DNA from: Armatimonadota bacterium
GTDB lineage: Bacteria; Armatimonadota; UBA5829; DTLH01
Direction of reading: 5' to 3'
Assembly: GCA_039680575.1 (NCBI GenBank)
Contig: JBDKSP010000042.1
Coordinates: forward strand, 1-42,392
Length of the DNA: 42,392 bases
Notes under the pieces: generated by a model
Told to the model about the DNA's origin: nothing
The model's database searches: none
What the model saw: only the letters and a program-made list of their open reading frames with translations
Shown: positions 2,153 through 22,305 of the stretch, piece after piece
Layout: the number at the start of each line of letters is the position of its first letter
How positions within the stretch are numbered: position 1 is the first letter of the stretch
Position numbers and translations under genes: made by a program

Positions 2153-3211
2153 ATGCCGGAATCCACACTTATGAATATTAATTTATTGCTTATACTGGGC
2201 AAGATGCTCCTTGTGGCCGTGGTTATCCTCGGTTTCATCCTCTTTGCGGTCCTATATATGATATGGGGGCTCAGGCGCGTCATGGGCTACATCCAGGCGA
2301 GGATCGGGCCGAACAGAGTCGGTCCTCAGGGACTGCTTCAGACAGTGGCCGACGCGCTCAAGCTGCTTCAAAAAGAAGATGTAATCCCGGAAGGCGCCGA
2401 CAAGTGGCTGTTCACCATCGCGCCGTTCATAGTCTTCGTCCCGGCTTACCTCGTTTATGTAGTAATGCCGTTCGGAAAAGGGCTGATCGCAAAAGACCTG
2501 AACATCGGGATAGTCTATGTAAGCGCAATTACGAGCATCTGCGTCATCGGGATAATCATCGGCGGTTGGGCGTCGAACAACAAATGGTCGCTCCTCGGAG
2601 CGTTCCGCGCGGCAGCGCAGCTTGTTGCTTATGAAGTCCCGATGGTTCTCGCGATCATCGTCCCGGTGATCTTCGCGGGAACACTCAGTATGCAGGGGAT
2701 AGTCGAAGCCCAGGGCGGCGGATGGTTTACCAACTGGTTCATATTCCGCGGCTGGGGAATCCCCGCGGTCGCGTTTATCATGTATTTCACTGCCGGACTT
2801 GCTGAAGTCAACCACACGCCTTTCGATATTATGGAAGCGGAATCTGAGCTCGTCGCCGGGTTCAACGTAGAGTACAGCGGAATGAAGTTCGCGCTCTTTT
2901 TCCTCGAGGAGTTCGCAGCATCGTTCACTGTCTCCGCCATAGCCGTGACGCTCTTCTTCGGCGGCTGGAACTCTCCAATTCCCTGTCTCGGCGGAAACTG
3001 GACGGGGATTGCAGGCCAGGCGGCATCGCTTTTCTGGTTCCTTGCAAAAAGCGTGGTCGGAGTCCTTGTTATGATGTGGATACGCTCCACATGGCCCAGA
3101 GTCCGCGTAGACCAGCTTATGAACCTGGGATGGAAAGTGATGATCCCGGCAGGCCTCGTTCTGCTTCTTGCCGCAGGGACTGTAGTAACGATGGGTTGGG
3201 TCAAGTTATGA
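2153..3211 (+). CDS. nuoH: NADH-quinone oxidoreductase subunit H (start ATG 2153 or 2171)
   Basis: QARIGPNRVGPQGLLQTVADALKLLQKE, PFDIMEAESELVAGFNVEYSG, PRVRVDQLM. Confidence 0.96.
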   Translation: MPESTLMNINLLLILGKMLLVAVVILGFILFAVLYMIWGLRRVMGYIQARIGPNRVGPQGLLQTVADALKLLQKEDVIPEGADKWLFTIAPFIVFVPAYLVYVVMPFGKGLIAKDLNIGIVYVSAITSICVIGIIIGGWASNNKWSLLGAFRAAAQLVAYEVPMVLAIIVPVIFAGTLSMQGIVEAQGGGWFTNWFIFRGWGIPAVAFIMYFTAGLAEVNHTPFDIMEAESELVAGFNVEYSGMKFALFFLEEFAASFTVSAIAVTLFFGGWNSPIPCLGGNWTGIAGQAASLFWFLAKSVVGVLVMMWIRSTWPRVRVDQLMNLGWKVMIPAGLVLLLAAGTVVTMGWVKL

Positions 3212-3702
3212 AGAAGCGTTGCTTGTGCAGCGAGATAATATATACGTTCGTCAGCCTTACAAAAGGGCTATACATCACTTTCATAAACTTCTGGCGAAAG
3301 AAAATAACCATGATGTATCCCGAGGAGCGCTGGGAACTGCCCGAAGGCTATCGCGGCATGCCAGTGCTTCCCGCTGACCCTGAAACCGGCAGGGAAAAGT
3401 GCCTTGCCTGCGGCTCGTGCGCTAGAATTTGCCCTGAGCACGTAATCACGATCAAGCATGAGGTCGGTGAGGACAAAAAACGGCGGTTAGTCGAGTTCAA
3501 TATCGACATGTCCCGCTGCATGTTCTGCGGCCTCTGTACCGAAGCCTGCCCTACCAAGGGACTCGTGATGAGTAAGCACTTCGAGCTTGCGAGTTTTAGC
3601 AGAAAAGATATGATTTACGGCATCGACGACCTCCGAAGGCTCGGAGGAGTCTTCCCGAAAGAACCGGCCAAAGAAGCAGCGGCAGACGGAGGTGAAGCAT
3701 AG
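3208..3702 (+). CDS. nuoI: NADH-quinone oxidoreductase subunit I (copy 1)
   Basis: TMMYPEE, two CxxCxxCxxxCP motifs (CLACGSCARICP, CMFCGLCTEACP). ATGA overlap with the nuoH stop. Confidence 0.93.
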   Translation: MKKRCLCSEIIYTFVSLTKGLYITFINFWRKKITMMYPEERWELPEGYRGMPVLPADPETGREKCLACGSCARICPEHVITIKHEVGEDKKRRLVEFNIDMSRCMFCGLCTEACPTKGLVMSKHFELASFSRKDMIYGIDDLRRLGGVFPKEPAKEAAADGGEA

Positions 3703-3703
3703 C

Positions 3704-4234
3704 ATGAGCTTGAGCATAACAGGTTATCAGATAGCTTTTATTACCATTGCGGCTATGACAGTCGGCTCCGCGGTTATGGTCGTGACACTTCCGAACATCC
3801 TGAGATCGGCGCTTTTCCTGGCGTTTACGTTCCTTGGTGTAGCAGGGCTCTATGTGTTAGCCAACGCGGAACTTCTTGCCGCGATGCAGGTGCTTATTTA
3901 TGTCGGCGCAATCACCGTGCTCATTATGTTCGCTTTGGTGCTCACTCAGCAGTTGATGGGAGCCAAGATCAGGCAGTCGAGCCGTGGATGGCTCCTTGCC
4001 GCTCCTGCCGCAGCGCTGATGTTTGCTTTTTTGCTAAAAGGGTTTATAGAGCCGTTCAACAAGGCCGCAAGCGGAGCGGTTGCAGCCGGACCAGCGCCAG
4101 CTGACGCAGGCACACTTGTTTCGATAGCGAAGCTGCTCCTCCAGCCCTATGTGCTGCCGTTCGAGCTCGCATCGCTCATCCTGCTTGCCGCGCTTGTCGG
4201 CGCTATAGTGATTGCAAAGGAGGATAAAGAGTAG
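3704..4234 (+). CDS. nuoJ: NADH-quinone oxidoreductase subunit J
   Basis: QVLIYVGAITVL, YVLPFELASLILLAALVGAI. GGAGGT RBS before ATG 3704. Confidence 0.95.
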   Translation: MSLSITGYQIAFITIAAMTVGSAVMVVTLPNILRSALFLAFTFLGVAGLYVLANAELLAAMQVLIYVGAITVLIMFALVLTQQLMGAKIRQSSRGWLLAAPAAALMFAFLLKGFIEPFNKAASGAVAAGPAPADAGTLVSIAKLLLQPYVLPFELASLILLAALVGAIVIAKEDKE

Positions 4235-4543
4235 ATGCCTCCCGTAACCTGGTATCTTTACGTCTCCGCAGCGCTTTTCGCCCTCGGGCTTTTCGGCATA
4301 ATGACAAGGCGAAACGCTATTGCGATGCTGATGTCCATTGAGCTTATGCTGAATGCCGCAAACATCAATTTAGTTGCATTTTCGGGATATTTGAGAGGGC
4401 ATACGCTCGTCGGCCAGATATTCGCACTCTTCGTGATTGCAATAGCAGCCGCCGAATCCGCCGTGGGACTTGCGATAATCATAAACGTTTACAGAACCGT
4501 TAAGCATATAGATGCTGACGATATCAATTTGATGAAGTGGTAG
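4235..4543 (+). CDS. nuoK: NADH-quinone oxidoreductase subunit K
   Basis: RRNAIAMLMSIELMLNA, AAAESAVGLAI. Confidence 0.97.
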   Translation: MPPVTWYLYVSAALFALGLFGIMTRRNAIAMLMSIELMLNAANINLVAFSGYLRGHTLVGQIFALFVIAIAAAESAVGLAIIINVYRTVKHIDADDINLMKW

Positions 4544-4547
4544 GCCG

Positions 4548-6653
4548 ATGATTCAGTTAGCCTGGTTAATACCTGTTATACCGCTCGCTGCATTCGCGGC
4601 GATCATATTTTTTGGGCCCAAGCTCAAGAGCAATGCCGCGTACGTCGCCATAGCTGCGATAGTGTCGTCGTTTTTGATCTCGGCGGGTATCGGCTATGAA
4701 TGGTTCTTCGTCCACCACGCACAAGCCGCTGCCAATTTCTACGCGGACTGGATCCCCACGGGGACGAGCGTGCTCAGGATAGGGTTCGGGGTCGATTCGC
4801 TCACGATTATGATGCTCTTCGTTGTCACAATCGTAAGCATGATGGTGCAGATATTCTCTATCGGTTATATGCACGGTGACCCGCGCTACCCCCGGTTCTT
4901 CGCATATCTCTCGCTTTTCACAGCTGCGATGCTCTCGCTTATAATCGCAAACACGATTCTCCTTATGTATATAAGCTGGGAGCTTGTAGGACTGACTTCG
5001 TATCTCCTGATCGGGTTCTGGTTCGAGAAACCTGAGGCAATGCGAGCCGCGAAGAAGGCGTTTTTAGTCACAAGAGTCGGTGATGTGGGTTTCTTCCTCG
5101 GTCTCTTGCTCCTTTATCTGAACACGGGTACAGTCGAGCTTGCCGGGATATTCAAACAGGTCGAACTTCTGAAGATACCGCAGGTCCATATCCCGGCGCT
5201 TGGGTTCGTCGCTTCGATAATTCTTGGAATTATGGCCTACGGGCTTGCAGGAGCGGTATTAAAAGGCACAAAACGGCTTCCAGTGGCGATTTTCGCAGGT
5301 CTTGCGATCTTCGGAGCGGCGTTTATGCTCATTCCGCACGGACCAGTGCAGATGTCGCTCGCAGCAGTAGCTTCGCTCCTTCTTTTCTGGGGAGCGGTCG
5401 GCAAATCAGCGCAGTTCCCGCTTCATGTCTGGCTTCCTGACGCTATGCAGGGACCTACTCCCGTGAGCGCCCTCATCCATGCAGCTACGATGGTCGCAGC
5501 CGGTGTCTATCTCGTTGCGAGGATGTATCCGCTCTTCCATGTCGATATGACCGCGCTCAATGTGGTCGCGGTCGTCGGAGCCTTTACAGCAGTATTCGCT
5601 GCGACGATGGGCATAGTGATGAACGACATCAAGCAGGTGCTCGCATACTCGACTATAAGTCAGCTCGGTTATATGATGATGGGGCTTGGGGTCGGCGGCT
5701 ACACCGCAGGGCTTTTCCACCTTATGACGCACGCTTATTTCAAGGCTAACCTGTTCCTCGGATCAGGAAGCGTCATCCATGGGACAGGCACGCAGGATAT
5801 GAGGCAGATGGGCGGCCTTTACAAGAAGATGCCTTACACCTTCTGGACGTTCGTCATAGCGACTGCCGCTCTTGCTGGGCTTCCGGGGTTCGCAGGCTTC
5901 TTCAGCAAGGATGAAATTCTTCTCGCTGCCTATCACTGGCACGGCGGTAAGATGGTTTTCTACGCCGGAGTTGCCGGTGCGTTCCTGACAGCGTTTTATA
6001 TGACCAGGCTCCTCGCGATGACCTTCTTCGGTGAGCCGAAGGATAAAGAGATCCACGCTCATGAGAGTTCGAAGGTGATGGTAATCCCGCTTATGGTGCT
6101 GGCGTCGCTTTCAATACTCGCGGGTTATGTGGGACTGCCCTGGAATAATATCTTTTCGCACTATATCAGCTTCGGGCACGGGGAGCATGAGTTCTCATGG
6201 GCTGTTGTGGCTATGGGAACCGGCGCAGGGTTGTTTGGAATTGCGTTTGCCTCGCTCATCTGGATCTGGCCAGTGTTCCGGTTCGCTTCGCTTAAGCCTG
6301 CGCTTGGATGGGTCCAGACGCTTCTTGCTAACAAGTATTATATGGATGATATCTACGACATCGTAATCATCCGCCCGCTGATGATCTCGACCAGAGCAAT
6401 GTTTGCGTTCGACAGGTGGGTCATAGACTACGTGATCGTAAACGGCACCGGCTGGATAACATTGCAGCTTTCAACTCTCTGGGCTATATTCGACCGCTAC
6501 GTAGTAGACGGTATCGTGAACCTCGTCGGAGAGCTTACGAAACGCGGTGGATACGCGCTTCGATATGTTCAGACAGGGATAGTGCAGCAGTATGCGCTGA
6601 TTCTTGTTGTTTGCGTTGTTCTTATTGGTTGGTATTTCGTTCTATTGAGGTAG
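4548..6653 (+). CDS. nuoL: NADH-quinone oxidoreductase subunit L
   Basis: WELVGLTSYLLIGFW, GKSAQFPLHVWLPDAMQGPTPVSALIHAATMV, HLMTHAYFKA, and a long C-terminal lateral helix region. Confidence 0.97.
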   Translation: MIQLAWLIPVIPLAAFAAIIFFGPKLKSNAAYVAIAAIVSSFLISAGIGYEWFFVHHAQAAANFYADWIPTGTSVLRIGFGVDSLTIMMLFVVTIVSMMVQIFSIGYMHGDPRYPRFFAYLSLFTAAMLSLIIANTILLMYISWELVGLTSYLLIGFWFEKPEAMRAAKKAFLVTRVGDVGFFLGLLLLYLNTGTVELAGIFKQVELLKIPQVHIPALGFVASIILGIMAYGLAGAVLKGTKRLPVAIFAGLAIFGAAFMLIPHGPVQMSLAAVASLLLFWGAVGKSAQFPLHVWLPDAMQGPTPVSALIHAATMVAAGVYLVARMYPLFHVDMTALNVVAVVGAFTAVFAATMGIVMNDIKQVLAYSTISQLGYMMMGLGVGGYTAGLFHLMTHAYFKANLFLGSGSVIHGTGTQDMRQMGGLYKKMPYTFWTFVIATAALAGLPGFAGFFSKDEILLAAYHWHGGKMVFYAGVAGAFLTAFYMTRLLAMTFFGEPKDKEIHAHESSKVMVIPLMVLASLSILAGYVGLPWNNIFSHYISFGHGEHEFSWAVVAMGTGAGLFGIAFASLIWIWPVFRFASLKPALGWVQTLLANKYYMDDIYDIVIIRPLMISTRAMFAFDRWVIDYVIVNGTGWITLQLSTLWAIFDRYVVDGIVNLVGELTKRGGYALRYVQTGIVQQYALILVVCVVLIGWYFVLLR

Positions 6654-6660
6654 GGACTTG

Positions 6661-8175
6661 ATGGATTCCTGGATTCTCACGTTAATAACGTTCATCCCGC
6701 TTTTAGGCGCGGCTATACTGATATTCATACCGAAGGAGCGTGCGCTTGGCATCAAGTGGACGGCTGTTATCATCAGCCTTATCCCGCTGGCGCTCTCCAT
6801 CTGGCTATGGATGCATTACGACTCGAACGGGGTACAGTTCCCGCAGGGCGCTCAGTTCCTTGTGGACCTCCCCTGGGTCAATCAGTTAGGTGTCCACTAT
6901 ATTCTCGGCGTTGACGGAGTCAGCGTCCCGATGGTCTTTCTGACCACGCTTCTTGTGACGCTCTCACTTATCTACTCGCTCTTCATCGAGACGCGGCCCA
7001 AGGAATATTTCAGCCTGTTCCTCCTGCTTGAGACCGGGTTGCTTGGGACGTTTATCGCTCTCGACTTTTTCCTGTTCTACGTCTTCTGGGAACTGACACT
7101 GGTGCCGATGTATTTCCTGATCGGTATCTGGGGCGGCCCAAGACGCGAATATGCGTCCATCAAGTTCTTCCTTTACACACTCGTCGGAAGCGTTGCCATG
7201 CTCCTTGCGATACTGGCAATGTATTTCAACACACAGCCGCATTCGTTCAGCATGCTGGCTATGGCCGATGCAGGGATGGACCTAAGACTGGGCGCCAGCG
7301 CGCCGCTTGTCTTCGCCGCGCTTTTCCTCGGTTTCGCGGTCAAGGTTCCGTTGTGGCCGTTCCACACATGGCTTCCTGATGCTCACGTCGAAGCACCGAC
7401 GGCTGGAAGCGTCATCCTGGCGGGCATAATGCTCAAGATGGGGACTTACGGGTTCATCCGCGTCCTTCTGCCGATACTGCCGCAGACCTCCAGACAGTTC
7501 TGGGTCCCAATAGCGGTCCTCGCGCTCATCTCGATCATTTACGGCGCGCTCGTCGCTATGGCACAGAAGGACCTGAAGAAGCTGATCGCCTACTCCAGCG
7601 TAAGCCATATGGGATATGTTATTCTGGGGATTGCCGCTGCCATGGGTGTTTCTCATGCTGTCACGATCGATGACCGCGCTATGGCGCTAAACGGCGCGAT
7701 GCTCCAGATGTTCAACCACGGGATCATCACAGGCGCGCTCTTCCTTCTGGTCGGCGTGATCTACGAACGGGCTCACACAAGAGACCTTGATTCCTTCGGC
7801 GGACTCGGTGCAAGAATACCGATATTCGCCGGGCTCTTCTGGGTTGCGTGCTTCGGTTCACTCGGCCTGCCAGGGCTTTCGGGGTTCTGGGGTGAGTTCT
7901 TCGTGCTGAGAGGCGTTTTTGCTGTGAATATTCTTATCACGGCGCTTGCAGGAATCGGTATAGTCGTGACCGCGGCTTACCTCCTCTGGACTGTCCAGAG
8001 AGTCCTGATGGGCACGCCTAACCCAAAGTATGCAAAGATGCCTGATGCGAATGCCCGTGAGATCGTAGCGCTTGCTCCGCTTATGGCGATCATGGTGGCC
8101 CTCGGCTTCTGGCCCAAACCTATTATCGATATACTGAATACAGCATCCGTTGCGATAGCTCGTATTTTTGGATAA
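6661..8175 (+). CDS. nuoM: NADH-quinone oxidoreductase subunit M
   Basis: FYVFWE, KVPLWPFHTWLPDAHVEAPTAGS, LIAYSSVSHMG. Confidence 0.97.
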   Translation: MDSWILTLITFIPLLGAAILIFIPKERALGIKWTAVIISLIPLALSIWLWMHYDSNGVQFPQGAQFLVDLPWVNQLGVHYILGVDGVSVPMVFLTTLLVTLSLIYSLFIETRPKEYFSLFLLLETGLLGTFIALDFFLFYVFWELTLVPMYFLIGIWGGPRREYASIKFFLYTLVGSVAMLLAILAMYFNTQPHSFSMLAMADAGMDLRLGASAPLVFAALFLGFAVKVPLWPFHTWLPDAHVEAPTAGSVILAGIMLKMGTYGFIRVLLPILPQTSRQFWVPIAVLALISIIYGALVAMAQKDLKKLIAYSSVSHMGYVILGIAAAMGVSHAVTIDDRAMALNGAMLQMFNHGIITGALFLLVGVIYERAHTRDLDSFGGLGARIPIFAGLFWVACFGSLGLPGLSGFWGEFFVLRGVFAVNILITALAGIGIVVTAAYLLWTVQRVLMGTPNPKYAKMPDANAREIVALAPLMAIMVALGFWPKPIIDILNTASVAIARIFG

Positions 8176-8187
8176 GGCATTCAACTG

Positions 8188-9762
8188 ATGACCAAGTTTG
8201 AGTTTATATGCGTTGCACCGATGATTATGCTCGCAGCACTGGGAATTATAGTGCTCCTCATCGGTACGATTACGGACAGGTTCCCAAAAGGACGGCTGAA
8301 CCACTGGTTCCCGCCCGAGTATTTCTCGGCGACTATGATGGTTCCCGTCATAATAATGGCAGGAGCTGCGCTCTGGTTCAGCATCTACCGCGGCACAGCA
8401 GAATTATTCTGTCTGAACGGCACGACCAATCCGCTTATCATGGTCGATCCTTTCGCCGCTTTTATGGGGCTCATCGCAATTGTCGGCACATTTGTCGTGA
8501 TGCTTATGTCGTGGGAATACTTCGGCGACCACAATACTAAGCACCGTGGCGAATATTTCGCGCTTCTTTTCTTTGCAACGACCGCGATTCTTCTTGTGAC
8601 GGCATCGACCGACCTTATAATGATCTACCTGTCGCTGGAGTTCTTGAGTCTGTCGTCTTATGTGCTCGCATCTTACTGGAAGAACGACCCTAAATCGAGC
8701 GAAGCCGGACTGAAGTATCTCATCTTCGGCGCAACTTCTTCCGCAGTAATGCTCTACGGTATGTCGATGCTCTATGGGCTTACTAATTCGACTAACCTGG
8801 GCACGATAGCATCGACTTTGAGCCGCGGCGAAGTGATGTCGCTTCCTGGAGCGCTCACTGCAGTCATAATGGTGCTGGTCGGACTAGGATTCAAGCTTGC
8901 GCTGGTCCCGTTCCACCTTTGGGCGCCGGATGTATACGAAGGAGCCCCCACCCCGATCACTGCGTGGCTCTCAGTCGCATCGAAAGCAGCCGGACTCGCG
9001 GTCGTGACCCGATTCCTGCTTGTTGCAGTCCCCGTCAGCTCCGGGGTCGATTGGTACACAATCGTTCTCATACTCGCAGGCGCCAGTATGACGCTTGGAA
9101 ACCTGGCAGCTATCCCGCAGAAGAATATCAAGCGTATGCTTGCTTATTCCAGCATAGCGCAGGTCGGCTATATGCTGATCGGTCTTCTCGCAGCAGCGGC
9201 GACTATATCTCCCAACTCACCGGATTCCGCCGTAAAAATGGGTTATATGGCCGTTTCGAACCAGAACATCGGCACGACGAACTACGGACTGGCCGGGCTT
9301 ATGATCTACGCCGCGAGCTACCTGGTTATGAACCTTGGAGTGTTCGCGGTAGTTATCGGGATCGAAAAGCGGACCGGGAACTCCGAAATAGAGTCTTTTG
9401 CAGGAATGGTGAAGCGGGCTCCGTTCTTTGCCTGGTCGCTCGTTTTATTCCTGCTTTCTCTTGCTGGAATCCCACCGACCGCCGGCTTCCTCGGTAAGGC
9501 GTATGTCTTTGCGGGAGCAATCCAGTCCGCACGGACCGACCTCCTGGTCCTTGCCATCATAGCGATAGCAAACAGCGTGGTTTCCATCTACTACTACTTC
9601 AACGTAGTCCGAGTGGTATTTATGAAGGACGCGGAGACGAAAACCCAGCTCCGACCGTCTGTATCCCTTACGGTTGCCGTATCTCTTATGCTTATCTTCA
9701 CATTCGGGATATTCGTCGCCGCCGGACCGCTTATCCAGTTGGTAAGAGCAGCTATTCTTTAG
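8188..9762 (+). CDS. nuoN: NADH-quinone oxidoreductase subunit N
   Basis: SSEAGLKY, FKLALVPFHLWAPDVYEGAPTP, KRMLAYSSIAQ, SLAGIPPTAGFLGK. Confidence 0.97.
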   Translation: MTKFEFICVAPMIMLAALGIIVLLIGTITDRFPKGRLNHWFPPEYFSATMMVPVIIMAGAALWFSIYRGTAELFCLNGTTNPLIMVDPFAAFMGLIAIVGTFVVMLMSWEYFGDHNTKHRGEYFALLFFATTAILLVTASTDLIMIYLSLEFLSLSSYVLASYWKNDPKSSEAGLKYLIFGATSSAVMLYGMSMLYGLTNSTNLGTIASTLSRGEVMSLPGALTAVIMVLVGLGFKLALVPFHLWAPDVYEGAPTPITAWLSVASKAAGLAVVTRFLLVAVPVSSGVDWYTIVLILAGASMTLGNLAAIPQKNIKRMLAYSSIAQVGYMLIGLLAAAATISPNSPDSAVKMGYMAVSNQNIGTTNYGLAGLMIYAASYLVMNLGVFAVVIGIEKRTGNSEIESFAGMVKRAPFFAWSLVLFLLSLAGIPPTAGFLGKAYVFAGAIQSARTDLLVLAIIAIANSVVSIYYYFNVVRVVFMKDAETKTQLRPSVSLTVAVSLMLIFTFGIFVAAGPLIQLVRAAIL

Positions 9763-9812: not shown

Positions 9813-9816
9813 GGAT

Positions 9817-9850
9817 AGTTCCCCGAGACTGGACGATTTTCGAGCTTTTC
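9817..9850. repeat. att-like site A (right half plus degenerate core)
   Basis: TTCCCCGAGACTGGACGATTTTCGAGCTTTTC versus CTCCCCTGGCTGGACGATTTTAGAACTTTTC in site B. Confidence 0.65.
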
Positions 9851-9874
9851 TGGCAATGACATCACACAAACCTC

Positions 9875-9922
9875 TTGACAAGTGGGTTCCCCTGTTTTAT
9901 TATTTAGATGTTAGACTAATTA
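9875..9922 (+). promoter_or_regulatory. sigma70 promoter and probable ArsR/SdpR auto-operator
   Basis: TTGACA-N17-TATTAT, followed by the imperfect inverted repeat ATTTAG-N8-CTAATT. Confidence 0.55.
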
Positions 9923-9937
9923 GCAAATAGGTGTGGC

Positions 9938-10288
9938 ATGAGCAAGGTGTTCCGAGCGCTTTCAGACCCTACTAGACGGAAGATCCTTCAGCTTCTGCGT
10001 AAGCGTGACATGACAGCCGGCGAGATCGCAAAGCATTTTGAGATCACAAAGCCCACGCTGTCGCGGCACTTTGCCATCCTGAAGGAGGCAGACCTGATCT
10101 ACGGCAATAGGGTACGTACTACCATCACTTATCACCTGAACGTCTCTGTGCTGGAAGATGCCTTAGTCACTCTACTTGATACCTTCGATCTCCTCAATGA
10201 AAGAGACCTTGGCAAACCTGAAAACCGAATGGCGTCTCCAAATCAAGAGTCATCTTGCACGGTACAACGAGTTGTGGAGGAAAAATAG
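9938..10288 (+). CDS. ArsR/SmtB family autorepressor, SdpR-like
   Basis: VFRALSDPTRRKILQLL...MTAGEIAKHFEITKPTLSRHFAILKEADL...YHLNVSVLED. Confidence 0.9.
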   Translation: MSKVFRALSDPTRRKILQLLRKRDMTAGEIAKHFEITKPTLSRHFAILKEADLIYGNRVRTTITYHLNVSVLEDALVTLLDTFDLLNERDLGKPENRMASPNQESSCTVQRVVEEK

Positions 10289-10290
10289 CA

Positions 10291-10962
10291 GTGGAAACTC
10301 AGTCGACATCCAGTATCAGACCGGTACTTATGGCGAGCGCCATCATTCTGGGAATAATGCTGATCCTCACCGTGGTGGCTTGGATCAAAATTCCTGCTGG
10401 GCAAATGATTGCCACGCACTCAAATCTGAGGGGTCAGCCTGACGCATATTCAAACAAGACGGTCGGGCTCTTAGGGCTTCCTATTGCCACTCTCATTTTA
10501 GCAGGGGTCTTCCTTCTGTTGGCTAAGATTCAGAACCTCTCTTCAGTCAAGACAATCATGTGGGTTGCAGCCCTGACACCCATGGTCGTGTTGCAGGTAA
10601 TCGGAATATGCAATGCCCTTGGTCGGAAGCTGAACGCTATTACTGTGATATGGGGAACGTTAGGATTGCTTCTCATCGTGGTCGGCAACTACTTCCCGAA
10701 GCTTCGTAGGAATCGCGTCTCAGGAATCAAGACTCCTTGGACACTTTCCAGTGAGCTTTCGTGGAACAAGACCCACCGGATTGGTGGGCCGCTCGTCATG
10801 CTGTACGGACTGATGACTCTGATGAGTGTGGTCTTCTGTGATCCCATCACTCTCTTTAAGCTCATCGTCGCTGGCGGAGTGCTTCTCGCCCTCTTTTTGA
10901 TTGTGTACTCATACATTGTCTGGAAAAGCGATCCGGGTCGCTCACCATGGCTTCGTATATAG
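10291..10962 (+). CDS. SdpI/YhfL family membrane immunity protein with DUF1648
   Basis: IATHSNLRGQPD (DUF1648-like) and GNYFPKLRRNRVSGIKTPWTLSSELSWNKTHRIGG (SdpI). GTG start after GGAGG. Confidence 0.9.
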   Translation: METQSTSSIRPVLMASAIILGIMLILTVVAWIKIPAGQMIATHSNLRGQPDAYSNKTVGLLGLPIATLILAGVFLLLAKIQNLSSVKTIMWVAALTPMVVLQVIGICNALGRKLNAITVIWGTLGLLLIVVGNYFPKLRRNRVSGIKTPWTLSSELSWNKTHRIGGPLVMLYGLMTLMSVVFCDPITLFKLIVAGGVLLALFLIVYSYIVWKSDPGRSPWLRI

Positions 10963-10995
10963 CTGTGTAGAGGTCGAAGGCAGCGTGAAACAAAC

Positions 10996-11074
10996 AGGCA
11001 GAGCAACTCTACAACTGACCTGCCTTGATCTTCAAATTTGCTGGCTCCCCTGGCTGGACGATTTTAGAACTTTT
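10996..11074. repeat. att-like site B (complete: hairpin, CTTCAAATTT, tRNA-3'-like core, right half)
   Basis: 11028-11074 matches 12015-12061 at 46/47 nt. The minus strand contains GTCCAGCCAGGGGAGCCA. Confidence 0.9.
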
Positions 11075-11150
11075 CGGTGGAAGCGGCGTAAAATATTAAA
11101 TGTAGCCTATCGCTCGCGGGTCAAATTCTACTACTGCTATTCCTCGGTCG

Positions 11151-11948
11151 TTATGAGCTGGACTGCAGCATGGCACAAACCTCTGCTGCCAACCAAAACA
11201 GTTTCTGGTTACCAGTAACCGGCTGATGCTCACAACGTGAATCCCATACCTCCCCACTCACGTCATCCGCAGAAGAGAGCAGTTGCCCGATGGTAATATT
11301 CCTGAAGTGCGCAACGGCAAAGAGTGCAGAAGCTTCCATTTCTACAGCCAAACAACCTTCGCTTCGACGGCGATTAACTTTTCTAGGTGTCTCCCTGAAG
11401 ATTGCATCCGTTGTCCACGTTTTTCCCATTAGATATCTGCATTTATGTGCAGTGAGTATATCAGCAATCATCGATATTGCTTCAGGAGATGGCTTTATTT
11501 CGCGCGCGGGTGGTAAATAATGATATGATGTTCCTTCATCTCTGATAGCGGCGGTTGGCACAATAATTGTTCCTTTTGTAATACTGCTATCAAGTACTCC
11601 GCAGGATCCACAAACTATGACTCTTCGACAACCTAAGGAAATGACTTCTTCGAGAAGTGCCGCAGCAAATGAAGCGCCAAGACCAAGCTGGAACACGGCC
11701 AATGTAGTACCAAAAGCCTGAATTTCGTATATTGGATGTTTCCCCATGCTGGAACTCAAATGGTGTATCTGTAACGCATGCCCATCCGCAACAAGCTGAT
11801 CAATGACAGTTTGATTAAAGCAGGCTACAGCGCGGTCATGCATCACTCCAGCCCTAGCTGTGTGGACAGGTTCTATGATTGCATGCGGCTTATCATCAAA
11901 TTCCAGAATAGGAAACTCATGCTCGATCATTTTTGCTGTTTCAGGCAA
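11151..11948 (-). CDS. Nucleoside (uridine/purine) phosphorylase family protein, PNP_UDP_1 (start TTG 11948 or ATG 11930)
   Basis: GSCG, AIRDEGTSYHYLPP, WTTDAIFRET, AVEMEASALFA. Confidence 0.9.
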   Translation of the reverse strand: MPETAKMIEHEFPILEFDDKPHAIIEPVHTARAGVMHDRAVACFNQTVIDQLVADGHALQIHHLSSSMGKHPIYEIQAFGTTLAVFQLGLGASFAAALLEEVISLGCRRVIVCGSCGVLDSSITKGTIIVPTAAIRDEGTSYHYLPPAREIKPSPEAISMIADILTAHKCRYLMGKTWTTDAIFRETPRKVNRRRSEGCLAVEMEASALFAVAHFRNITIGQLLSSADDVSGEVWDSRCEHQPVTGNQKLFWLAAEVCAMLQSSS

Positions 11949-11982
11949 CCATTCTCCTGAAGCCTCTCCCCTAAACGCACTA

Positions 11983-12061
11983 AAGCATCACAATTATACA
12001 ACTTCTCTGCCATAATCTTCAAATTTACTGGCTCCCCTGGCTGGACGATTTTAGAACTTTT
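11983..12061. repeat. att-like site C (complete; minus-strand promoter intact)
   Basis: Near-identical to site B. Minus strand TTGAAG-N18-TATAAT at 12022-11993. Confidence 0.9.
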
Positions 12062-12125
12062 TGGATCGATGGTGAGCAGCGGAATTGGACTACAGGTCAT
12101 CTCCACCACAGTATTAGCTGACGGG

Positions 12126-12407
12126 TTATGCTTTTATTTCGCTGTGTATCTGATCCAGTTTCTGCCGGTTCTCTGAACCCATCGGTGAACATCCATCAAT
12201 CGCATCACATGGATACTCATCACAGTAGCCACAATTCGCGACTTCCTTATCTACCACGCATTGTCTTATGTTGCAGCCTTCATTTTTGCTGTCGTTAATG
12301 CAGCCCTCGCACGGGTCCTCTATCTCTTTGATTGCATCTCTATTCTCAGCGCTCGTGAAACGAGAGCATTCGTTGCACAACATGCCGCACGCACCTATGT
12401 AATCCAT
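12126..12407 (-). CDS. DUF3795 cysteine-rich protein
   Basis: CGMLCNEC...CEGC...CNIRQC...CGYCDEYPC pattern. GAGGAGG RBS. Confidence 0.85.
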   Translation of the reverse strand: MDYIGACGMLCNECSRFTSAENRDAIKEIEDPCEGCINDSKNEGCNIRQCVVDKEVANCGYCDEYPCDAIDGCSPMGSENRQKLDQIHSEIKA

Positions 12408-12424
12408 TTGATGATGACCTCCTC

Positions 12425-13018
12425 TTACATGGGTTTCAGGTTGTTGTTCAGTCTTTCTATAATCCGCGCTAGGCGTCTTGCTCTAGCTTCTTCAGACACG
12501 GCGGCTAAGTACACTGCGGTGTAAGTTACCCTAACAGATTGGGACATGGCCAGGAAATTAGAATACGCCGGTTCCGTACCTTTTAGCAGTTCAACAAGAG
12601 TGTTAAGCTGTTCATCCGTGAATGGTACAGGCTTGGGGGTATCCCATGTGCCTCTTCTCTTTGCCTCTTCGACTTTAGCGCGGCCATGATCCGTCATTTT
12701 GCCTTGTGCTTCCAGGGAATCAATCAAGCCTTTATTCTTCTCGGACCATTTGCTCCCTTTTCGCCTTTGGGCAAAATACTTCTTGTAGGCAGTCTCATCA
12801 AGGCTATTCATCTGCCCATCGATCCAACCGAAGCAGAGCGCTTCTTCTAGAGCTTCACTTGCGGACAGTGTTTTGGGTCCACCCTTCTTGCCGATAACCA
12901 ACCAAATTCCCTGAACCGACTGGCAATTTTCGTTGAGCCACTCGCGGAATTCTTCTCTTGATGCAAACTGGTACATTGATGTAATCTGATATTGATCTCT
13001 GGCTTCAATTGCAGTCAT
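12425..13018 (-). CDS. YdeI/OmpD-associated (OmdA) family protein
   Basis: EALEEALCFGWIDG, FAQRRKGSKWSEKNK, RARRLARII. GGAGG RBS before ATG 13018. Confidence 0.9.
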   Translation of the reverse strand: MTAIEARDQYQITSMYQFASREEFREWLNENCQSVQGIWLVIGKKGGPKTLSASEALEEALCFGWIDGQMNSLDETAYKKYFAQRRKGSKWSEKNKGLIDSLEAQGKMTDHGRAKVEEAKRRGTWDTPKPVPFTDEQLNTLVELLKGTEPAYSNFLAMSQSVRVTYTAVYLAAVSEEARARRLARIIERLNNNLKPM

Positions 13019-13090
13019 GAATCCTCCGCTTCGCAGATGCTGAGTTTGGGAAGCCTTTTTCCTGAAACCTAACGCTCCCAGACGTACAAA

Positions 13091-13135
13091 AGGCAGGGCA
13101 ATTATACAACTGCTCTGCCTCAAACTTCAAATTTG
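13091..13135. repeat. att-like site D (hairpin/promoter half only)
   Basis: AGGCAGGGCA-ATTATACAAC-TGCTCTGCCT-CAAA-CTTCAAATTTG. Minus strand TTGAAG-N18-TATAAT, and the hairpin is followed by a short T run. Confidence 0.85.
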
Positions 13136-13221
13136 TGTAATAGTTCACTCTTGTAAGAATTATATATTATCCTGAACAACTAACTCGTCATTATGGAAGG
13201 ACGTCACCCTGGACGGCAAAC

Positions 13222-13355
13222 ACGTCACCCTGAGCTAAGGAGTTTCAGGTATTACCTGAAACTCTCCCCGGAAGATTTTCGGCTATAGCCGAAAATCCAT
13301 AGATTCAGGGTCCAGTTTTTCCTGGATTCCGAGTCAAGCTCGGAATGACGTTGTG
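13222..13355. repeat. REP-like GTCA...TGAC palindromic element with nested hairpins
   Basis: CGTCACCCTGAGCT ... GATTCAGGGTCC ... GGATTCCGAGTCAAGCTCGGAATGACG, enclosing GAGTTTCAGGTATTACCTGAAACTC and GATTTTCGGCTATAGCCGAAAATC. Homolog at 37487-37675. Confidence 0.75.
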
Positions 13356-13360
13356 GTAGT

Positions 13361-14515
13361 TCAGCATGATATTATACTCATCAACTCTGAACTCTTACAA
13401 ATTTGTTGGCTCCCCAGCGCTGACTCTGTCTCCCCTATTACCCGCTCATCCGTCTCCGACTTCAAAGCCTGCCGAAGCGCTTCGCAGGCGTCATTACCGC
13501 CGATTTGGCCGAGAGCCCACGCCGCATGGACTCGTATTACGGGTTCAGGATCATTAAGCGCCTCTATCAACACAGTTACAGCGGAAGGATCGCCGATATT
13601 ACCGAGCGCTACAGCAACATTTCGGCGAAATCTCGTTCTGCCTATCCATGCTATGGCCGTCGGGCCGATTATACGGTCGAATTCTTCCTGGCTGATGTTC
13701 AGGAGAGGTATCAGGGCTGGATGATGAAGAATAAGCGTCTCTTCGCCCTGTTTTGAGGAAATTCCGACGTTTTTCGGGCAGGACTCCTGGCAGATGTCGC
13801 AGCCATAGATGCTGTCACCGATGATCGGCCTAAGCTCACGCGGGATAATCCCTTTCATCTGAGTCAGATGGGATATACACCTCGTCTGGTCGATCACGAA
13901 CGGGCAGGCAATCGCACCGGAAGGACAGTTACGAACGCATATATCGCAGTCGCCGCACTCTTCCATCGGGGCAGGATCGTCATATTCGAGCTCGACATCC
14001 GTGACCATCTCGCCCAGGACAACCCATGAGCCCGATTTTTCGGTGATAATGGAGGCATTCTTTCCATAGGAGCCGATTCCGGCTGCGCGGGCTGCGGCGC
14101 GGTCGATCATCGAGCCGGTATCTACGCAAATCTTACATTTTGCGGAAGGGATCTGCTCGACCAGCCATTCCCCAAGCTCTTGAAGTCGCTCTGTGACGAC
14201 AACATGGTAATCTTGCCCCGTAGCGAACCTGGCAACCAGACCCTTTGGCCCCCTGCCCTCATCCACCTTCTCCGTGGCAAGGTAAGGCCATGCCACAACG
14301 ATCATCGATTTGGCTTCAGGGACAAGCGATTCCGGGTGGGTAAATCGTTCGGCAGGTTTTCGGCTAAACCCGTAGTCTTTCAGCCTGCCGGACTCGACTC
14401 TTTCTTTTAAGGCTTCTTCGGCAAAGTCGAGCGCGGCAGCCGGAGCGATTCCGACCGCTGATAAACCAAGCTCGAAAGCCCTCTTTTTCAGTTGAGCAGT
14501 GAGATTATCATTCAT
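13361..14515 (-). CDS. queG: tRNA epoxyqueuosine(34) reductase with C-terminal HEAT repeats
   Basis: ARFATGQDYH, VDTGSMIDR, GIGSYGKN, CGDCDICVRNCP, CISHLT, IYGCDICQESCP, RNVAVALGN. Start reassigned to ATG 14515. Confidence 0.95.
   Translation of the reverse strand: MNDNLTAQLKKRAFELGLSAVGIAPAAALDFAEEALKERVESGRLKDYGFSRKPAERFTHPESLVPEAKSMIVVAWPYLATEKVDEGRGPKGLVARFATGQDYHVVVTERLQELGEWLVEQIPSAKCKICVDTGSMIDRAAARAAGIGSYGKNASIITEKSGSWVVLGEMVTDVELEYDDPAPMEECGDCDICVRNCPSGAIACPFVIDQTRCISHLTQMKGIIPRELRPIIGDSIYGCDICQESCPKNVGISSKQGEETLILHHPALIPLLNISQEEFDRIIGPTAIAWIGRTRFRRNVAVALGNIGDPSAVTVLIEALNDPEPVIRVHAAWALGQIGGNDACEALRQALKSETDERVIGETESALGSQQICKSSELMSIISC
13371..13415. repeat. att-like site E (promoter half plus GGGGAGCCA core) inside the queG 3' end
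   Basis: Minus strand GGGGAGCCAACAAAT-TTGTAA-N18-TATAAT, the same architecture as sites B-D. Confidence 0.65.
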
Positions 14516-17484: not shown

Positions 17485-17910
17485 TTATGGATATGGGACC
17501 AGGAGCATATCTTTCGTATAAATCTCCGCATCCCTCGTATATTCGGAAATCTCATATATATCACGGAGGACGATTGCCTCCACAGGGCAGGCATCCTGGC
17601 AGTAACCGCAGAATATGCACCTAAGCATATTGATCTCGTATACCTGGGCGTAGCGCTCGCCGGGAGAATATCTCGCCCCATCACGGTTTTCGGCTGCGAC
17701 GACCAGTATGCAGTGTGCAGGACAGGCTCCGGCACAAAGCGAACACCCTATGCACCGCTCCAGGCCATCCTCATGCCGCAGGAGCACATGCCGCCACCTG
17801 GCGCGCGGAGGAAGTCTGCGTTTTACTTCCGGGTATTCCACCGTCACGCGCTTTTCCGCAAGCACATGCCTCATCGTGACTGCCAGACCTTCGAAGAGCT
17901 CCTTCAGCAT
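17485..17910 (-). CDS. nuoI: NADH-quinone oxidoreductase subunit I (copy 2)
   Basis: TVEYPE, CIGCSLCAGACP, YEINMLRCIFCGYCQDACP. TGATG coupling to nuoG. Confidence 0.95.
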   Translation of the reverse strand: MLKELFEGLAVTMRHVLAEKRVTVEYPEVKRRLPPRARWRHVLLRHEDGLERCIGCSLCAGACPAHCILVVAAENRDGARYSPGERYAQVYEINMLRCIFCGYCQDACPVEAIVLRDIYEISEYTRDAEIYTKDMLLVPYP

Positions 17911-20039
17911 CAGCGGACCTCCCACTGCCGGCCAAATGGACCCAGCGAGTCATAGGATATACCGTTGTAGCCCGGCATGATCTGCGATATTTCGTCGTAG
18001 ATATTCTCAACCCGCCCGAAATCAAAACCGGAGGTTCCGGTGAGAAACGCAGCCTTCAGGATAATATCCGTGTCCGGCAAAGAGTCGCCTATCGGTCTGA
18101 TAGCCGGGCTGATCCGTTGAATCCTGCGCTCAGTGTTCGTAAAAGTCCCTTTTGTCTCGGCAAATGTCGAACTCGGAAGGACCACATGAGCCATTTTGGC
18201 TGTCTCGGTAAGGAAATAGTCCTGAACGATCAATGCATCGAGCCTGCCGAGAGATTCCCTGGCGTCGTCGTCGTAAACCAGATGGCTCACAGGGTCGAGA
18301 CCCATAATCCAAAGAGCAAAGATGTCGCTTCCGGTTTTTGCAATAATCTCCCGTCCTGAAAATCCTCTTTCACTTGAAAGTTCGCCGCCCCAAAAGCCTT
18401 CCATCTCGGCGCGCGTGTCAGGCGATATCTTCCGATAGCCTGGATAATAACCCGGCAGTAGCCCCACATCCATAGCCCCCTGAGAGTTGCCATCCCGTGT
18501 GAGGAGCATTGCAGACACATTTGCGCCAAACCCATGTAAAGCATCGATGAGCCAGTTCAGCGAGTCCAGTATATCCAGTCCACGCTCGGCGGACCGAAGA
18601 AGCGGTTCCGAGACGAGAAGTGAGATTGATTTGGCGTCTTTCAGCGTTTTCGACGCGGACTCTATACTCTCTCTTTCAACACCGGCCATCGGCTGGCACG
18701 CCAGTCCCTTGACCGCGTTCGACAGTTCCGCAGCAAACTTCGCCTCTTTGCCTTCGTGGTACGGCAGGAACGCTGATGCGTATTTTGCAAGCTCCGCGGC
18801 GAGAGGATAGGCAAAAATGAGCTTGCTGCCATGCTTCCACACGGCTTTCTTTATCCAAAGGTCGATTAGCGGCAGGTCGAAGCTGATGTCCGAGCCAATT
18901 GAAAGAATAACTTCCGAGTTCGGGATGTCTCTGATCGAACCATTGAACATTCCACCGGATAACCCTGAGGCAAGAGCGTCCGCCCCATCGGCGCTTCTCG
19001 GCTCTATGGTAAAATCTATGTTGTTCGTCCTCAATACGCACCGTATGAACTTCTGGAAGAGGTAGTTTTGCTCGTTCGTGCGGTTCGGTGAGCCGAGTCC
19101 GGCCGTACGGGCTCCGGCTTTACGCATTAGGGAGATCGCAGTCGTGAGCGCTTCTTCCCATGTCGTTTCCTGAAACTCACCATTTTTTCTTACGAGTGGC
19201 TTTGTGAGACGCTCAGAATCGTTTATGAAGGTAGAATCGAACCGGCCGCGGTCGCAGAGCCAGTCTTCATTGACTTCATCATTATTCCGCGCCACAAAAC
19301 GAGCCACATGCCGCCCGCTGCGGTCGTGAATCTCCATATTACAGCCGACACCGCAGTCCGGGCAGATGCTCTCGGTGCTTGTCATCTCCCAGGGTCTTGC
19401 CCTGAACCTGAAAACGCTGGAAAGGAGCGCTCCGACAGGGCAGAGCTCTATGGTATTCCCTGAAAAGTTGGACTCGAACGGTTTTCCTGGGAAAATGTCG
19501 ATGTAGTCGCGGTATCCGCGATTGGAGACAAAAATCTGAGGATGGTCGACTATCTCCCTTTGGAACCTGACGCACCTGAAGCACAGGATGCACCGCTCCC
19601 TGTCCATAAGGACCAGTGCCGAAAGAGGAACAGGCTTCGCAAAATGGCGTTTTTCGTGCTCGAACCGGCTGTCGGTCGGGCCGTAAGCGAAAGTATTGTC
19701 CTGAAGAGGACATTCGCCTCCACGGTCGCACACAGGGCAGTCGAGCGGATGGTTGATAAGCAAAAATTCGAGCACACCCTTCCACATCTCCTTGACTTCG
19801 GGGGTATTGGTGCGGACTACCATCCCATCTGCTGCTTTGGTAGAGCATGATACCTGCGGCTTGCGGAACCCCTCTATATCCACCAGACACTGCCTGCAGG
19901 CGCCGACCGGCTCCAGCTTATGATGGTAGCAGAAAACGGGAATGTCTATCCCAAGCATCTTCGCCGCCTCAAGCACCAGCGTGTCCTTCGGCACAGTTAT
20001 CTTCTGCCCGTCTATTGTCAAAGTGACTTCATCGGCCAT
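17910..20039 (-). CDS. nuoG: NADH-quinone oxidoreductase subunit G
   Basis: N1b (FCYHHKL..GACRQC...SC), N5 (HPLDCPVCDRGGEC), N4 (CILCFRC...CPVG), N7 (CPDCGVGC...LCDRGRF), and a molybdopterin-oxidoreductase-like C-terminal domain. Confidence 0.95.
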   Translation of the reverse strand: MADEVTLTIDGQKITVPKDTLVLEAAKMLGIDIPVFCYHHKLEPVGACRQCLVDIEGFRKPQVSCSTKAADGMVVRTNTPEVKEMWKGVLEFLLINHPLDCPVCDRGGECPLQDNTFAYGPTDSRFEHEKRHFAKPVPLSALVLMDRERCILCFRCVRFQREIVDHPQIFVSNRGYRDYIDIFPGKPFESNFSGNTIELCPVGALLSSVFRFRARPWEMTSTESICPDCGVGCNMEIHDRSGRHVARFVARNNDEVNEDWLCDRGRFDSTFINDSERLTKPLVRKNGEFQETTWEEALTTAISLMRKAGARTAGLGSPNRTNEQNYLFQKFIRCVLRTNNIDFTIEPRSADGADALASGLSGGMFNGSIRDIPNSEVILSIGSDISFDLPLIDLWIKKAVWKHGSKLIFAYPLAAELAKYASAFLPYHEGKEAKFAAELSNAVKGLACQPMAGVERESIESASKTLKDAKSISLLVSEPLLRSAERGLDILDSLNWLIDALHGFGANVSAMLLTRDGNSQGAMDVGLLPGYYPGYRKISPDTRAEMEGFWGGELSSERGFSGREIIAKTGSDIFALWIMGLDPVSHLVYDDDARESLGRLDALIVQDYFLTETAKMAHVVLPSSTFAETKGTFTNTERRIQRISPAIRPIGDSLPDTDIILKAAFLTGTSGFDFGRVENIYDEISQIMPGYNGISYDSLGPFGRQWEVR

Positions 20040-20041
20040 TT

Positions 20042-21817
20042 TTACCTATCCACTTCGCCCATAATCATATCCACACTGCCGAGGACGGCTATTACGTCGG
20101 AAACGAGCCTGTTTTGAATCATAAGCGGCATACTCTGAAGCGTCGAAAACGTCGGGGAGCGCAGATGCATTCTGTAGGGCTTCGGGCTGCCGTCGCTTAC
20201 GATGTAGTATCCGGCCTCGCCGCGTGGACCTTCGTAGCTTACGTAGGAATCGCCCTTCGGCACATTGAACCCCTTTGTCGCCACGAGAAAATGATGGATC
20301 AGCGATTCCATGCTCACATCCAGCCGCTGTCTCGGCGGAAGGACTATCTTGTAATCCTCGATTCTATAGTCCCCATCGGGAAGGTTATCAAGCGCTTGTT
20401 CTATGATCCTCAGGCTCTGCCTCATCTCTTCCATCCGAACGAGATAACGGTCATACACATCGCTGTTTTCGCCGGTCGGAATATCGAAATCGAACTCATC
20501 GTAAGCCGAATAAGGCCAGACCTTGCGTACATCCCAGGCGAGCCCGGTTGCGCGGAGGACAGGACCGGAAACACCGTAGCTCAGGGCATCTTCCCTGCTT
20601 ATGCAGCCGATTCCCTTAGTCCGCTCTAGCCAGATCGGGTTTTTCGTAAGAAGCGAATGGTAATCATCCAGCCTGGCAGGGAAAGTGTCCAGAAAACGCC
20701 GGACTGCGGCGGTAAAACCTTCAGGAATATCGTCACGAAGGCCGCCGATATTGATCCAGCTCGTCATCATCCTCTGGCCGGAAAGGAGTTCGAAAATGTC
20801 GAGGATTGCTTCCCTGTCGCGGAACCCGTAGAGAAAGATCGTAACGGCTCCGATTTCTATCCCATGCGTCCCAAGCCAAAGCAGGTGGCTCGATATTCTT
20901 GTAAGCTCATTTAGAAGCACCCGCAGGTATTTCGCCCTCGGCGGGACTTCTATTCCCAAAAGTTTTTCGACAGAGAGCGCGTAGCCCAGGTTATTGATGA
21001 GCGGCGCAACATAGTCCATCCGGTCGGTAAGCGTCAAAGTCTGCTGGTAGAGAAGCTGCTCGGCCTGTTTTTCTATTCCGGTGTGGATGTAGCCGATGTC
21101 GAGGTCCGAATCGATGACCGTCTCCCCTTCGAGCGCGAGTATGACCCGAAGAACACCGTGCGTACTTGGGTGCTGTGGCCCCATATTGATGATGAGCTTT
21201 CCGTCTTTCTCATACTTCGCCATCCTCGATGCGCCGCAGGTGGTGTTCATCTCGTCTCCGCGCTCGATATAGGCTTTGAAGTCCATCCCCTCGAACTGTT
21301 CGTCATAGAACGCTGTCTGCGGGATAATGCTGCCCGTATTTTCAGTAAACTGGACTTCTTCACTCCCGATTGGGTGGTCTTTTCTTAAGGGATGGCCGAT
21401 CCAGTTGGACGGCATAAGTATTCTTCTTAAGTCCGGGTGGTCCGCGAACCGGATGCCGAACATGTCGTAGACTTCGCGCTCCATCCAGTTGGCGTTTTTC
21501 CAGACGGAGGTTACGGTCTCGACTTCCTCGCCTATCTCGACAGGCGCTTTTATCCACAAGCGGCGGCCATCAGGGACCGAATACATCCTGTAGACGGCCT
21601 CGAACCTCGGCCTTTTTCTATAGAAATCGACTGCCGTTATGTCCGAGAGAAAGTTGTAATTGAGGTTTGGATCATCGTGGAGTGCCCGGCAGAGCGGCAG
21701 GATGGCTTCGCGCTCGGCGCGGAGGAATATCTCCCGCCCTTCCGATGTCCGAGCCTTCTCGGAGACTTCCCTTAAAGCATCTTCCACTTTGTCTTTGGCG
21801 ATAACAGTGTCGATCAT
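20042..21817 (-). CDS. nuoCD: Fused NADH-quinone oxidoreductase subunit C/D
   Basis: [33 protein letters not shown] (NuoC) and [24 protein letters not shown] (NuoD). No NiFe CxxC ligands. Confidence 0.96.
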
Positions 21818-22305
21818 GGCTTTTGCCCAGACGGAATGCCCTTTTTGATCTTCTCCTGAATCATGATCAGCCCTTCAAGCAGCATCTCCGGGCTTGGCGG
21901 GCATCCGGGGATGTACACATCGACCGGCAGGATATTGTCCACGCCGTTTATGACCGCATAGTTACTGAAAACCCCTGAAGTCGAGGCGCATGCGCCCATC
22001 GAGATCACCCATTTGGGGTCCGGCATCTGGTCGTAGAGCCTTTTTGCGACCGGCATCATCTTGAGGCAGAGCCTGCCGGAGACGATCATCAAATCCGCCT
22101 GCCTGGGAGACGGCCTGAAGAGTTCTGCGCCGAACCGTGCCAGGTCGAAACGGGATGCAGCCGTCGCCATCATCTCTATGGCGCAGCAGGCAAGCCCCAT
22201 CATAAGCGGCCAGAGTGATGACCTCTCCGCCCATCTGACGAGATCATTTACACTGGCGAGAATTATCCCGCCCTCCCCGCTTCTCTTAAGGTCATTACCT
22301 TCCAT
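21814..22305 (-). CDS. nuoB: NADH-quinone oxidoreductase subunit B
   Basis: [33 protein letters not shown]. Confidence 0.97.

Follow-up and report, generated by a model that had tools for sequence, protein, structure and literature searches.

The contig analysed here, 42,392 nt from an Armatimonadota bacterium (JBDKSP010000042.1 of assembly GCA_039680575.1; this whole stretch is called the window below), carries an array of three small gene cassettes located in the 3′ end of queG, away from any tRNA. Judging from sequence comparison, these units are probably non-autonomous cassettes moved in trans, likely as small circles, by a family of large serine recombinases (LSRs) directed to tRNA-Asn, of which the related genome G013 encodes an intact member. 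Four related sites delimit the three cassettes with spacings of 1225, 987, and 1108 bp, and the core regions of the two internal sites, B (core 11042–11050) and C (core 12029–12037), are identical at 46 of 47 nt (BLAST E 4e-18). The tandem arrangement, the unit lengths, and this identity agree with the original prediction, which was made from the letters of the window and had counted five sites; the last two of these, D and E, are one site interrupted by a 262-bp miniature inverted-repeat transposable element (MITE) with an 8-bp duplication, hence four sites and three cassettes. The claim that no integrase is encoded locally holds, with no recombinase family among the 37 window open reading frames (ORFs) scanned, and the window contains no tRNA gene. 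The sites and the target gene are arranged as follows:

9816–9856, plus strand: site A, the distal junction, TAGTTCCCC followed by a P-type right arm 1 nt longer than those of B and C
10992–11041, minus strand: left arm of site B, a hairpin with its -10 box altered to TAGAGT; the genes of cassette 1 point the other way
11042–11092, plus strand: core of site B, TGGCTCCCC, with its P-type right arm, coding for a displaced LSR tail, WLPWLDDFRTF
11979–12079, plus strand: site C, with left arm, core 12029–12037, and right arm
13087–13136, minus strand: left arm of the proximal site (formerly D), with intact hairpin, T-run, and TTGAAG-18-TATAAT
13137–13398, no strand: the 262-bp MITE splitting the proximal site, its 8-bp duplication AAATTTGT at 13129–13136 and 13399–13406
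13399–13430, plus strand: remainder of the proximal site (formerly E), core 13407–13415 joined to tRNA-like queG sequence (a pseudo-attB half)
13361–14515, minus strand: queG, the target gene (TIGR00276 above cut-off)

The link to an LSR comes from G013, where a 14.5-kb element lies at tRNA-Asn on one contig and encodes an intact LSR of 534 aa that contains Resolvase, Recombinase, and Zn-ribbon domains. Its gene reads into the tRNA-Asn, where the C-terminus is NENWLPGLDSNQEPPG, and the far end of the element, identical over 33 nt to the start of the B and C core and right arm, translates as WLPWLDDFRTFLAMAA*, the tail that the LSR gene would carry in a circle. This far end is matched at 79–100% by 14 of 23 closed cassette units (described below). 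The earlier suggestion that the WLPWLDDFRTF peptide resembles LSR C-termini is thereby borne out, and support is found for what had been proposed for the array: hybrid sites at its ends, attachment (att) sites of a tRNA-Asn LSR, and units needing a recombinase in trans. Besides the LSR, the G013 element (L064:913-15509) carries a Prim-Pol/D5 primase-helicase, a tyrosine recombinase, and cargo, and is satellite- or tycheposon-like.

The original prediction had also read an 18-nt stretch at the core as the literal 3′ end of a tRNA-Asn. The tie to tRNA-Asn survives, the literal reading does not: the host tRNA-Asn shares 15 of the 18 letters, continuously only over the last 9 (GGGGAGCCA), and the letters past the core are the element's own arm. 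The expectation that some tRNA would end in CCAGCCAGGGGAGCCA was mis-set for that reason, and no tRNA-Asn 3′ end among those read from 44 genomes does so. The arms themselves are spaced in a suggestive way. Counted in alignments from the TC of TGGCTCCCC, the tRNA arm has GACTCGAAC at positions 11–19 and the right arm has TTTTAGAAC or ATATCGAAC at 16–24; for the LI integrase, the sections available of one study model the zinc-domain positions of attB and attP at 11–19 and 16–24, respectively (PMC3783163). A zinc-domain motif placed 5 bp farther out in P thus fits the comparison of right arm with tRNA arm.

In the host genome (G000), the tRNA-Asn lies on a separate contig and is entered by a frameshifted LSR ~90% identical to that of G013; the two other close copies are a 5′-truncated gene and an internal fragment (the three being at C21:1-1890, C76:663-1751, and C43:16642-17001). 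Since all three copies are broken, the array probably cannot move without an incoming helper. The C76 copy terminates in a variant arm, which G006 and G008 also have beside hairpin arms. At this truncated LSR the variant arm has only TGGCTC in common, which suggests TC as the crossover pair. LSRs at E ≤ 1e-40 occur in 8 of 53 genomes of the class, and two of the close enzymes, 69–75% identical to the tRNA-Asn one, read into tRNA-Gln (L114, L117; G034, G026).

How the array entered queG can be followed by comparison with G001, a genome of the same genus in which nuoN and queG are ordered as here, 1.7 kb of different DNA separates them, and the sites are lacking. There QueG is intact and ends in ESALGN*, whereas here, after ESALG, a tail derived from site and MITE sequence takes the place of the final codon and stop, so that the protein ends in ESALGSQQICKSSELMSIISC*. 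At the proximal junction (former E), core positions 2 and 4 come from the cassette arm and everything from position 10 onward comes from queG, which places the crossover within TCCCC. Over 20 positions the queG half shares 14 with the tRNA-Asn 3′ end and ranks in the top 15 of the 3,964 TCCCC places genome-wide. By these alignments, the array split the queG 3′ end at a tRNA-like off-target site, and the junction shows in its letters that a hairpin-core junction served as recombination substrate at least once, at queG. As a split target predicts, site A begins with native queG sequence, its first 9 nt being the queG 3′ end found in G001; its right arm is recovered by profile search genome-wide (E 1e-4). 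The intruding MITE belongs to a family, marked by terminal repeats of 11 bp and palindromes in the interior, that gives 123 BLAST pieces over 59 contigs of this genome, with 13 near-full-length copies plus many partial ones, and is present in G001 too; its edge at 13398 coincides with loose contig ends in three metagenome runs.

The left arm is the most distinctive part of these units. Read in the tRNA sense, it is a conserved stretch of ~50 nt in which the core is followed by TTGAAG, 18 nt, TATAAT within a 10-bp hairpin, and then a T-run. Folding supports the hairpin at D (z -2.83, 1 of 200 shuffles as stable), weakly at B (z -1.14), and not at C, where the hairpin has decayed and the minus-strand TTGAAG-18-TATAAT is intact. 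This arm is not an LSR gene end but a predicted promoter and terminator module, which the original prediction had not resolved; an LSR gene remnant was rejected for want of a tblastn match, as was a known RNA family (the single, chance Rfam match, E 0.76, falls at the nuoN terminator and none at the sites), and by eye the hairpin has no GTTRRRY end. In 8 of the 43 genomes with a readable flank the left arm lies directly behind tRNA-Asn, similar hairpins occupy this place in three further families, and a second terminator-like arm does so in G002, G003, G010, and G034; the left arm may thus have begun as a native tRNA terminator. The second arm (L072, L073, L089, L061) also heads a 1.35-kb unit inside the G018 array (L059:8894-10280). 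Three genomes (G031, G033, and G026; L035, L082, L085) have 2–3 full tRNA-Asn copies each, ~9–10 kb apart, some of which precede a hairpin arm; elements may include a complete tRNA.

Arm profiles give no further copy elsewhere in the 2.97-Mb assembly at E<0.05, with matches on this contig only. The additional copies that had been expected in the genome are therefore missing, and those expected in relatives are present, together with an LSR gene reading into tRNA-Asn. We collected 48 left arms, up to 10 per genome, from 12 genomes and one named record; the loci were chosen from matches and are no census, overlapping loci being dropped and two metagenome loci not counted. Their partner is a P arm in 16 cases and an intact tRNA-Asn in 8 (seven plus that of G304). 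Behind tRNA-Asn, relatives carry whole arrays of such units. No LSR or LSR remnant occurs in any of the 48 units. The 23 closed units, from 8 genomes, measure 667–4221 bp (median 1218). In 18 of 23 (p 0.005, a value computed on kin that are not independent and on ORFs called by length) and in 17 of the 19 below 2 kb, the longest ORF is oriented toward the promoter motif. An exact TATAAT forms the -10 box in 18 of these 23. Cassette 1 of the window, with antisense genes and a promoter motif of its own, has TAGAGT instead; four other antisense cases retain TATAAT, so that a link between antisense genes and a lost box is no rule. Cargo is varied and includes an acetyltransferase, methyltransferases, a radical SAM protein, an aldo-keto reductase, PEP-CTERM proteins, and many unknowns; at one locus a group II intron reverse transcriptase starts just inside the left arm (L041:12846-14346, G033). 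A search of the phylum returned 21 of 401 genomes at E ≤ 0.01, of which the 15 with E<1e-4 are all members of this class, and the remaining 6 (E 0.005–0.01) were taken as noise. Searched for by pattern, the left arm turned up at no locus in viral contigs, at two loci in metagenome contigs, and at six in genome contigs (the last with a pattern omitting one common variant). This distribution suggests a left arm restricted to one class, likely of Armatimonadota; one record with the arm bears the name Armatimonadetes bacterium UBA5829.

Together, these features outline how the cassettes would move. A circle junction, composed of hairpin arm, core, and P arm, would recombine with a tRNA-Asn 3′ end or with a sequence resembling it; the half on the tRNA side would stay intact, allowing further units to stack and shifting older ones outward. 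Read-through from the tRNA would end at the hairpin, and cargo transcription would start from the embedded promoter, so that a unit could work at any position. The LSR would be supplied by a passing autonomous element, and the units themselves probably arise as deletion derivatives of arrays, in which a captured tRNA terminator became linked to P-proximal cargo.

Contigs from four metagenome runs (X1–X4) reveal variation between strains in this array. X1, probably the source sample, contains an extra att-bounded contig at genome depth (31.7), not in the assembly, that can be compared with window positions 11034–11075 and 13093 onward and is possibly a fourth cassette. In X2 and X3, from a third study and ~98% identical, 11128–11903 has no cover and a different sequence enters site C, which suggests another unit in the cassette 2 slot. 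X4, from another study, has one 263-nt contig of depth 2 that joins 11040 to 12028, exactly cassette 2 (11042–12028) being absent. The comparison of the nuoN–queG interval proposed in the original prediction thus yields a relative, G001, without the sites and a single depth-2 contig with one cassette missing. A joint in X3 reaching back 1100 nt was considered as a circle and rejected, having 28 foreign letters between and a side of 39 nt.

Several observations weigh against mobilization in trans by the tRNA-Asn LSR family. Half of the left arms (24 of 48) have decayed or otherwise unrecognizable partners, mostly not tRNA-like, which means that insertion at tRNA-like off-target places is not general. 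In no case did an identical cassette recur at a second position or in a second genome, shared cargo reaching 78% at best, and close LSRs were not found in several cassette-rich genomes (G006, G008, G030, G031). At neither expected spacing is a clear zinc-domain motif visible in the hairpin arm, and a compensatory C-G change in the hairpin occurs in two genomes only. Classical serine integrases, according to the sections available of the study cited above, need a directionality factor for efficient recombination of hybrid sites (PMC3783163), so that a relaxed enzyme must be assumed; the varied flanks behind tRNA-Asn are consistent with one and do not prove it. Site A allows two readings, a split-target junction or a microhomology deletion, the second because its first 6 nt also equal the end of a MITE present at the same place in G001 and its arm is 1 nt long. 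Finally, the X4 joint lies inside 34 identical letters on its one contig and could also come from homologous recombination or a mis-join, and no circle junction was seen in the contigs of the four runs.

A bolder version of the trans-mobilized cassette, which we hold only tentatively, is a purpose-built serine-recombinase cassette system in which units of ~1.2 kb, each equipped with an att arm, a terminator, and a promoter pointing inward, circularize singly and restore the target, and in which a second palindrome, IR2, is the cargo loading site. In the window this motif stands near the end of cassette 3:

13045–13067, no strand: IR2 palindrome, which many cassettes have at a set distance in from their ends

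IR2 lies ≤130 nt from the left end in 20 of the 48 units and 60–63 nt from the right end in 3, against a genome background of 0.0034 per 100 nt. At right ends its orientation is opposite, and it also occurs dispersed alone (G000 C78:3854, C115:18090, C116:16825, and others). Action of the G013 tyrosine recombinase at IR2 is unsupported, the G013 element having no IR2. An SOS box was likewise rejected; IR2 is not present upstream of recA, where the window (1800–2130) has two CGAAC-containing motifs beside TATAAT that we take to be possible LexA boxes. If it proves true, loading at IR2 would make cassette genesis, still open for integrons, accessible to testing.

The array could instead be a fossil accretion comparable to that of cis-mobilizable elements (CIMEs), the leading alternative, which we find unlikely on balance. 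Its units would be the decayed remains of larger LSR elements, would have moved only beside an autonomous element and arrived as a block, and would now disappear solely through homologous recombination between the 47–74-nt repeats. The decayed partners, the absence of identical cassettes, and the X4 joint all suit such a history, as does one 4.2-kb unit whose tyrosine recombinase shares 81% identity with the one in the G013 element, a feature expected of a deletion derivative; the accessible parts of two studies present this model for Streptococcus and Dehalococcoides (PMC5704250, PMC3146451). However, because the LSR gene overlaps att, decay should leave LSR 3′ ends, whereas none of the 48 units has one and all share a different arm of ~50 nt; moreover, the hairpin arm is joined straight to queG within the core, as expected if the hairpin-core junction was itself a substrate, and unit size and gene orientation are uniform. 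Improbable in turn is that the hairpin arm is nothing more than the terminator native to tRNA-Asn (the B′ arm), with B and C as attR-type scars duplicated by unequal recombination. Its placement behind tRNA-Asn, the similar hairpins of other families, and the second terminator-like arm that both follows tRNA-Asn and heads a unit of the G018 array speak for this, but the arm is present here in three copies away from any tRNA while the host tRNA-Asn has a different flank, reaches 10 copies per genome, and heads unrelated cargo in every copy, so that a terminator may explain the origin of the arm and not its spread. A true integron array without its integrase (attC sites, IntI) shares the unit size, the one or two genes, and the co-orientation, and is nonetheless the least credible explanation by far, given sites anchored on the tRNA CCA end and matching an LSR element, a promoter motif in each cassette, and no IntI above cut-off in the genome (TIGR02249 best 93.3 bits, cut-off 265; assembly 96.8% complete).

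The cargo of the three cassettes is as follows:

9875–9903, plus strand: predicted promoter of cassette 1, TTGACA-17-TATTAT, the top match of a consensus scan (11/12)
9938–10288, plus strand: cassette 1, SdpR-family repressor (NF033789, 116.5 bits, cut-off 100)
10291–10962, plus strand: cassette 1, SdpI-family membrane protein (PF13630 and PF07853 above cut-off)
11151–11948, minus strand: cassette 2, nucleoside phosphorylase family protein (PNP_UDP_1; PF01048, 106.8 bits, above Pfam cut-off)
12126–12407, minus strand: cassette 3, DUF3795 protein (PF12675, 46.3 bits, above Pfam cut-off)
12425–13018, minus strand: cassette 3, YdeI/OmdA-like protein (PF13376, 22.3 bits, under the 25.6 cut-off)

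Most of the functions first proposed for these genes are thus confirmed by family models, the YdeI assignment alone falling below its cut-off. The cassette 2 gene is present in 2 of the 53 class genomes, and the sdpR/sdpI and ydeI homologues of relatives mostly lack bounding sites, with one weak left arm among 6 loci. Around the array, complex I genes form two opposed blocks on either side of queG and lipA (nuoH-N, window 2129–9762; nuoB, CD, G, 17485–22305).

These cassettes point to a second, serine-recombinase route to integron-like gene shuffling, in a little-studied lineage from wastewater samples, in which each cassette would bring its own expression signals. Direct testing becomes possible, since a candidate helper enzyme and its target have been identified, as have an off-target site and a deletion strain that both occur naturally; an LSR able to use many B′ flanks and to add cargo repeatedly at one site would also make a useful tool for gene stacking.

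Integrons have small, mostly co-oriented cassettes, a tyrosine recombinase, attI/attC sites, and a promoter upstream of the array. The array described here resembles them in its tandem, recombinase-less, mostly co-oriented cassettes with one or two genes and varied cargo, but differs in relying on a serine and not a tyrosine recombinase that is not resident at the array, in the absence of IntI, and in having a predicted promoter motif in each left arm rather than promoterless cassettes under one upstream Pc promoter. The description as integron-like is therefore apt as a functional analogy and fails for an integron proper, no IntI having been found. As for LSR integrative elements, which encode their own recombinase, none of the 48 units does so, whereas the arm-sharing G013 element does. 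Like CIMEs and module-less islands, the units here have att sites at both ends and no integration or transfer genes. Typical elements of the staphylococcal cassette chromosome (SCC) type are far larger than these units, and the LSR scores 92.5 bits against CcrB (cut-off 900), the CcrA, CcrB, and CcrC models all being far under cut-off; its similarity to the A118 integrase is distant (E 2.5e-6).

Among published systems, SCC composites are tandem arrays built by LSRs, in which att sites lie internally, older units are displaced outward, and some members are ccr-less, as far as the accessible text describes them (PMC13739063). Stacked LSR arrays and recombinase-less units are shared with the array here, which has tRNA-Asn and queG as targets instead of the rlmH of SCC (PMC13739063) and no Ccr enzyme near the model cut-offs. 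In Dehalococcoides, the portion available of one report describes ssrA islands with a ~540-aa LSR, DsiB, whose 3′ end lies over att, and 15 islands without an integration module (PMC3146451). These are alike in standing in tandem behind a tRNA-like gene with an LSR 3′ end overlapping att; the cassettes, by contrast, use tRNA-Asn and off-target sites, not ssrA, are ~1.2 kb with one or two genes, and share a predicted promoter/terminator end of a kind that this portion does not describe for the module-less islands (PMC3146451). CIMEs, in the excerpted account, lack integration genes, have att sites, occur in tandem at a tRNA 3′ end, and are individually decayed, whereas the units here, from different genera and families, are built on a common dedicated left end and retain no recombinase remnant (PMC5704250). 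Tycheposons, from the part of the study at hand, are cargo elements that stack at tRNAs between partial tRNA copies, and 910 of the 937 elements of that study use tyrosine integrases that they encode themselves (10.1101/2020.12.28.424599); stacking at tRNAs and the primase and cargo of the G013 element are alike, whereas the units here encode no integrase. No description of the miniature cassette form was found in the literature searched, which included few subscription papers and no supplements. The closest published kinds are the Dehalococcoides ssrA islands, CIMEs, SCC composites, and tycheposons, the array being neither an integron nor an SCC element; to these it adds a predicted promoter/terminator end common to the units, an off-target insertion whose position is mapped, a candidate helper that is intact, and the strain-level loss of one unit.

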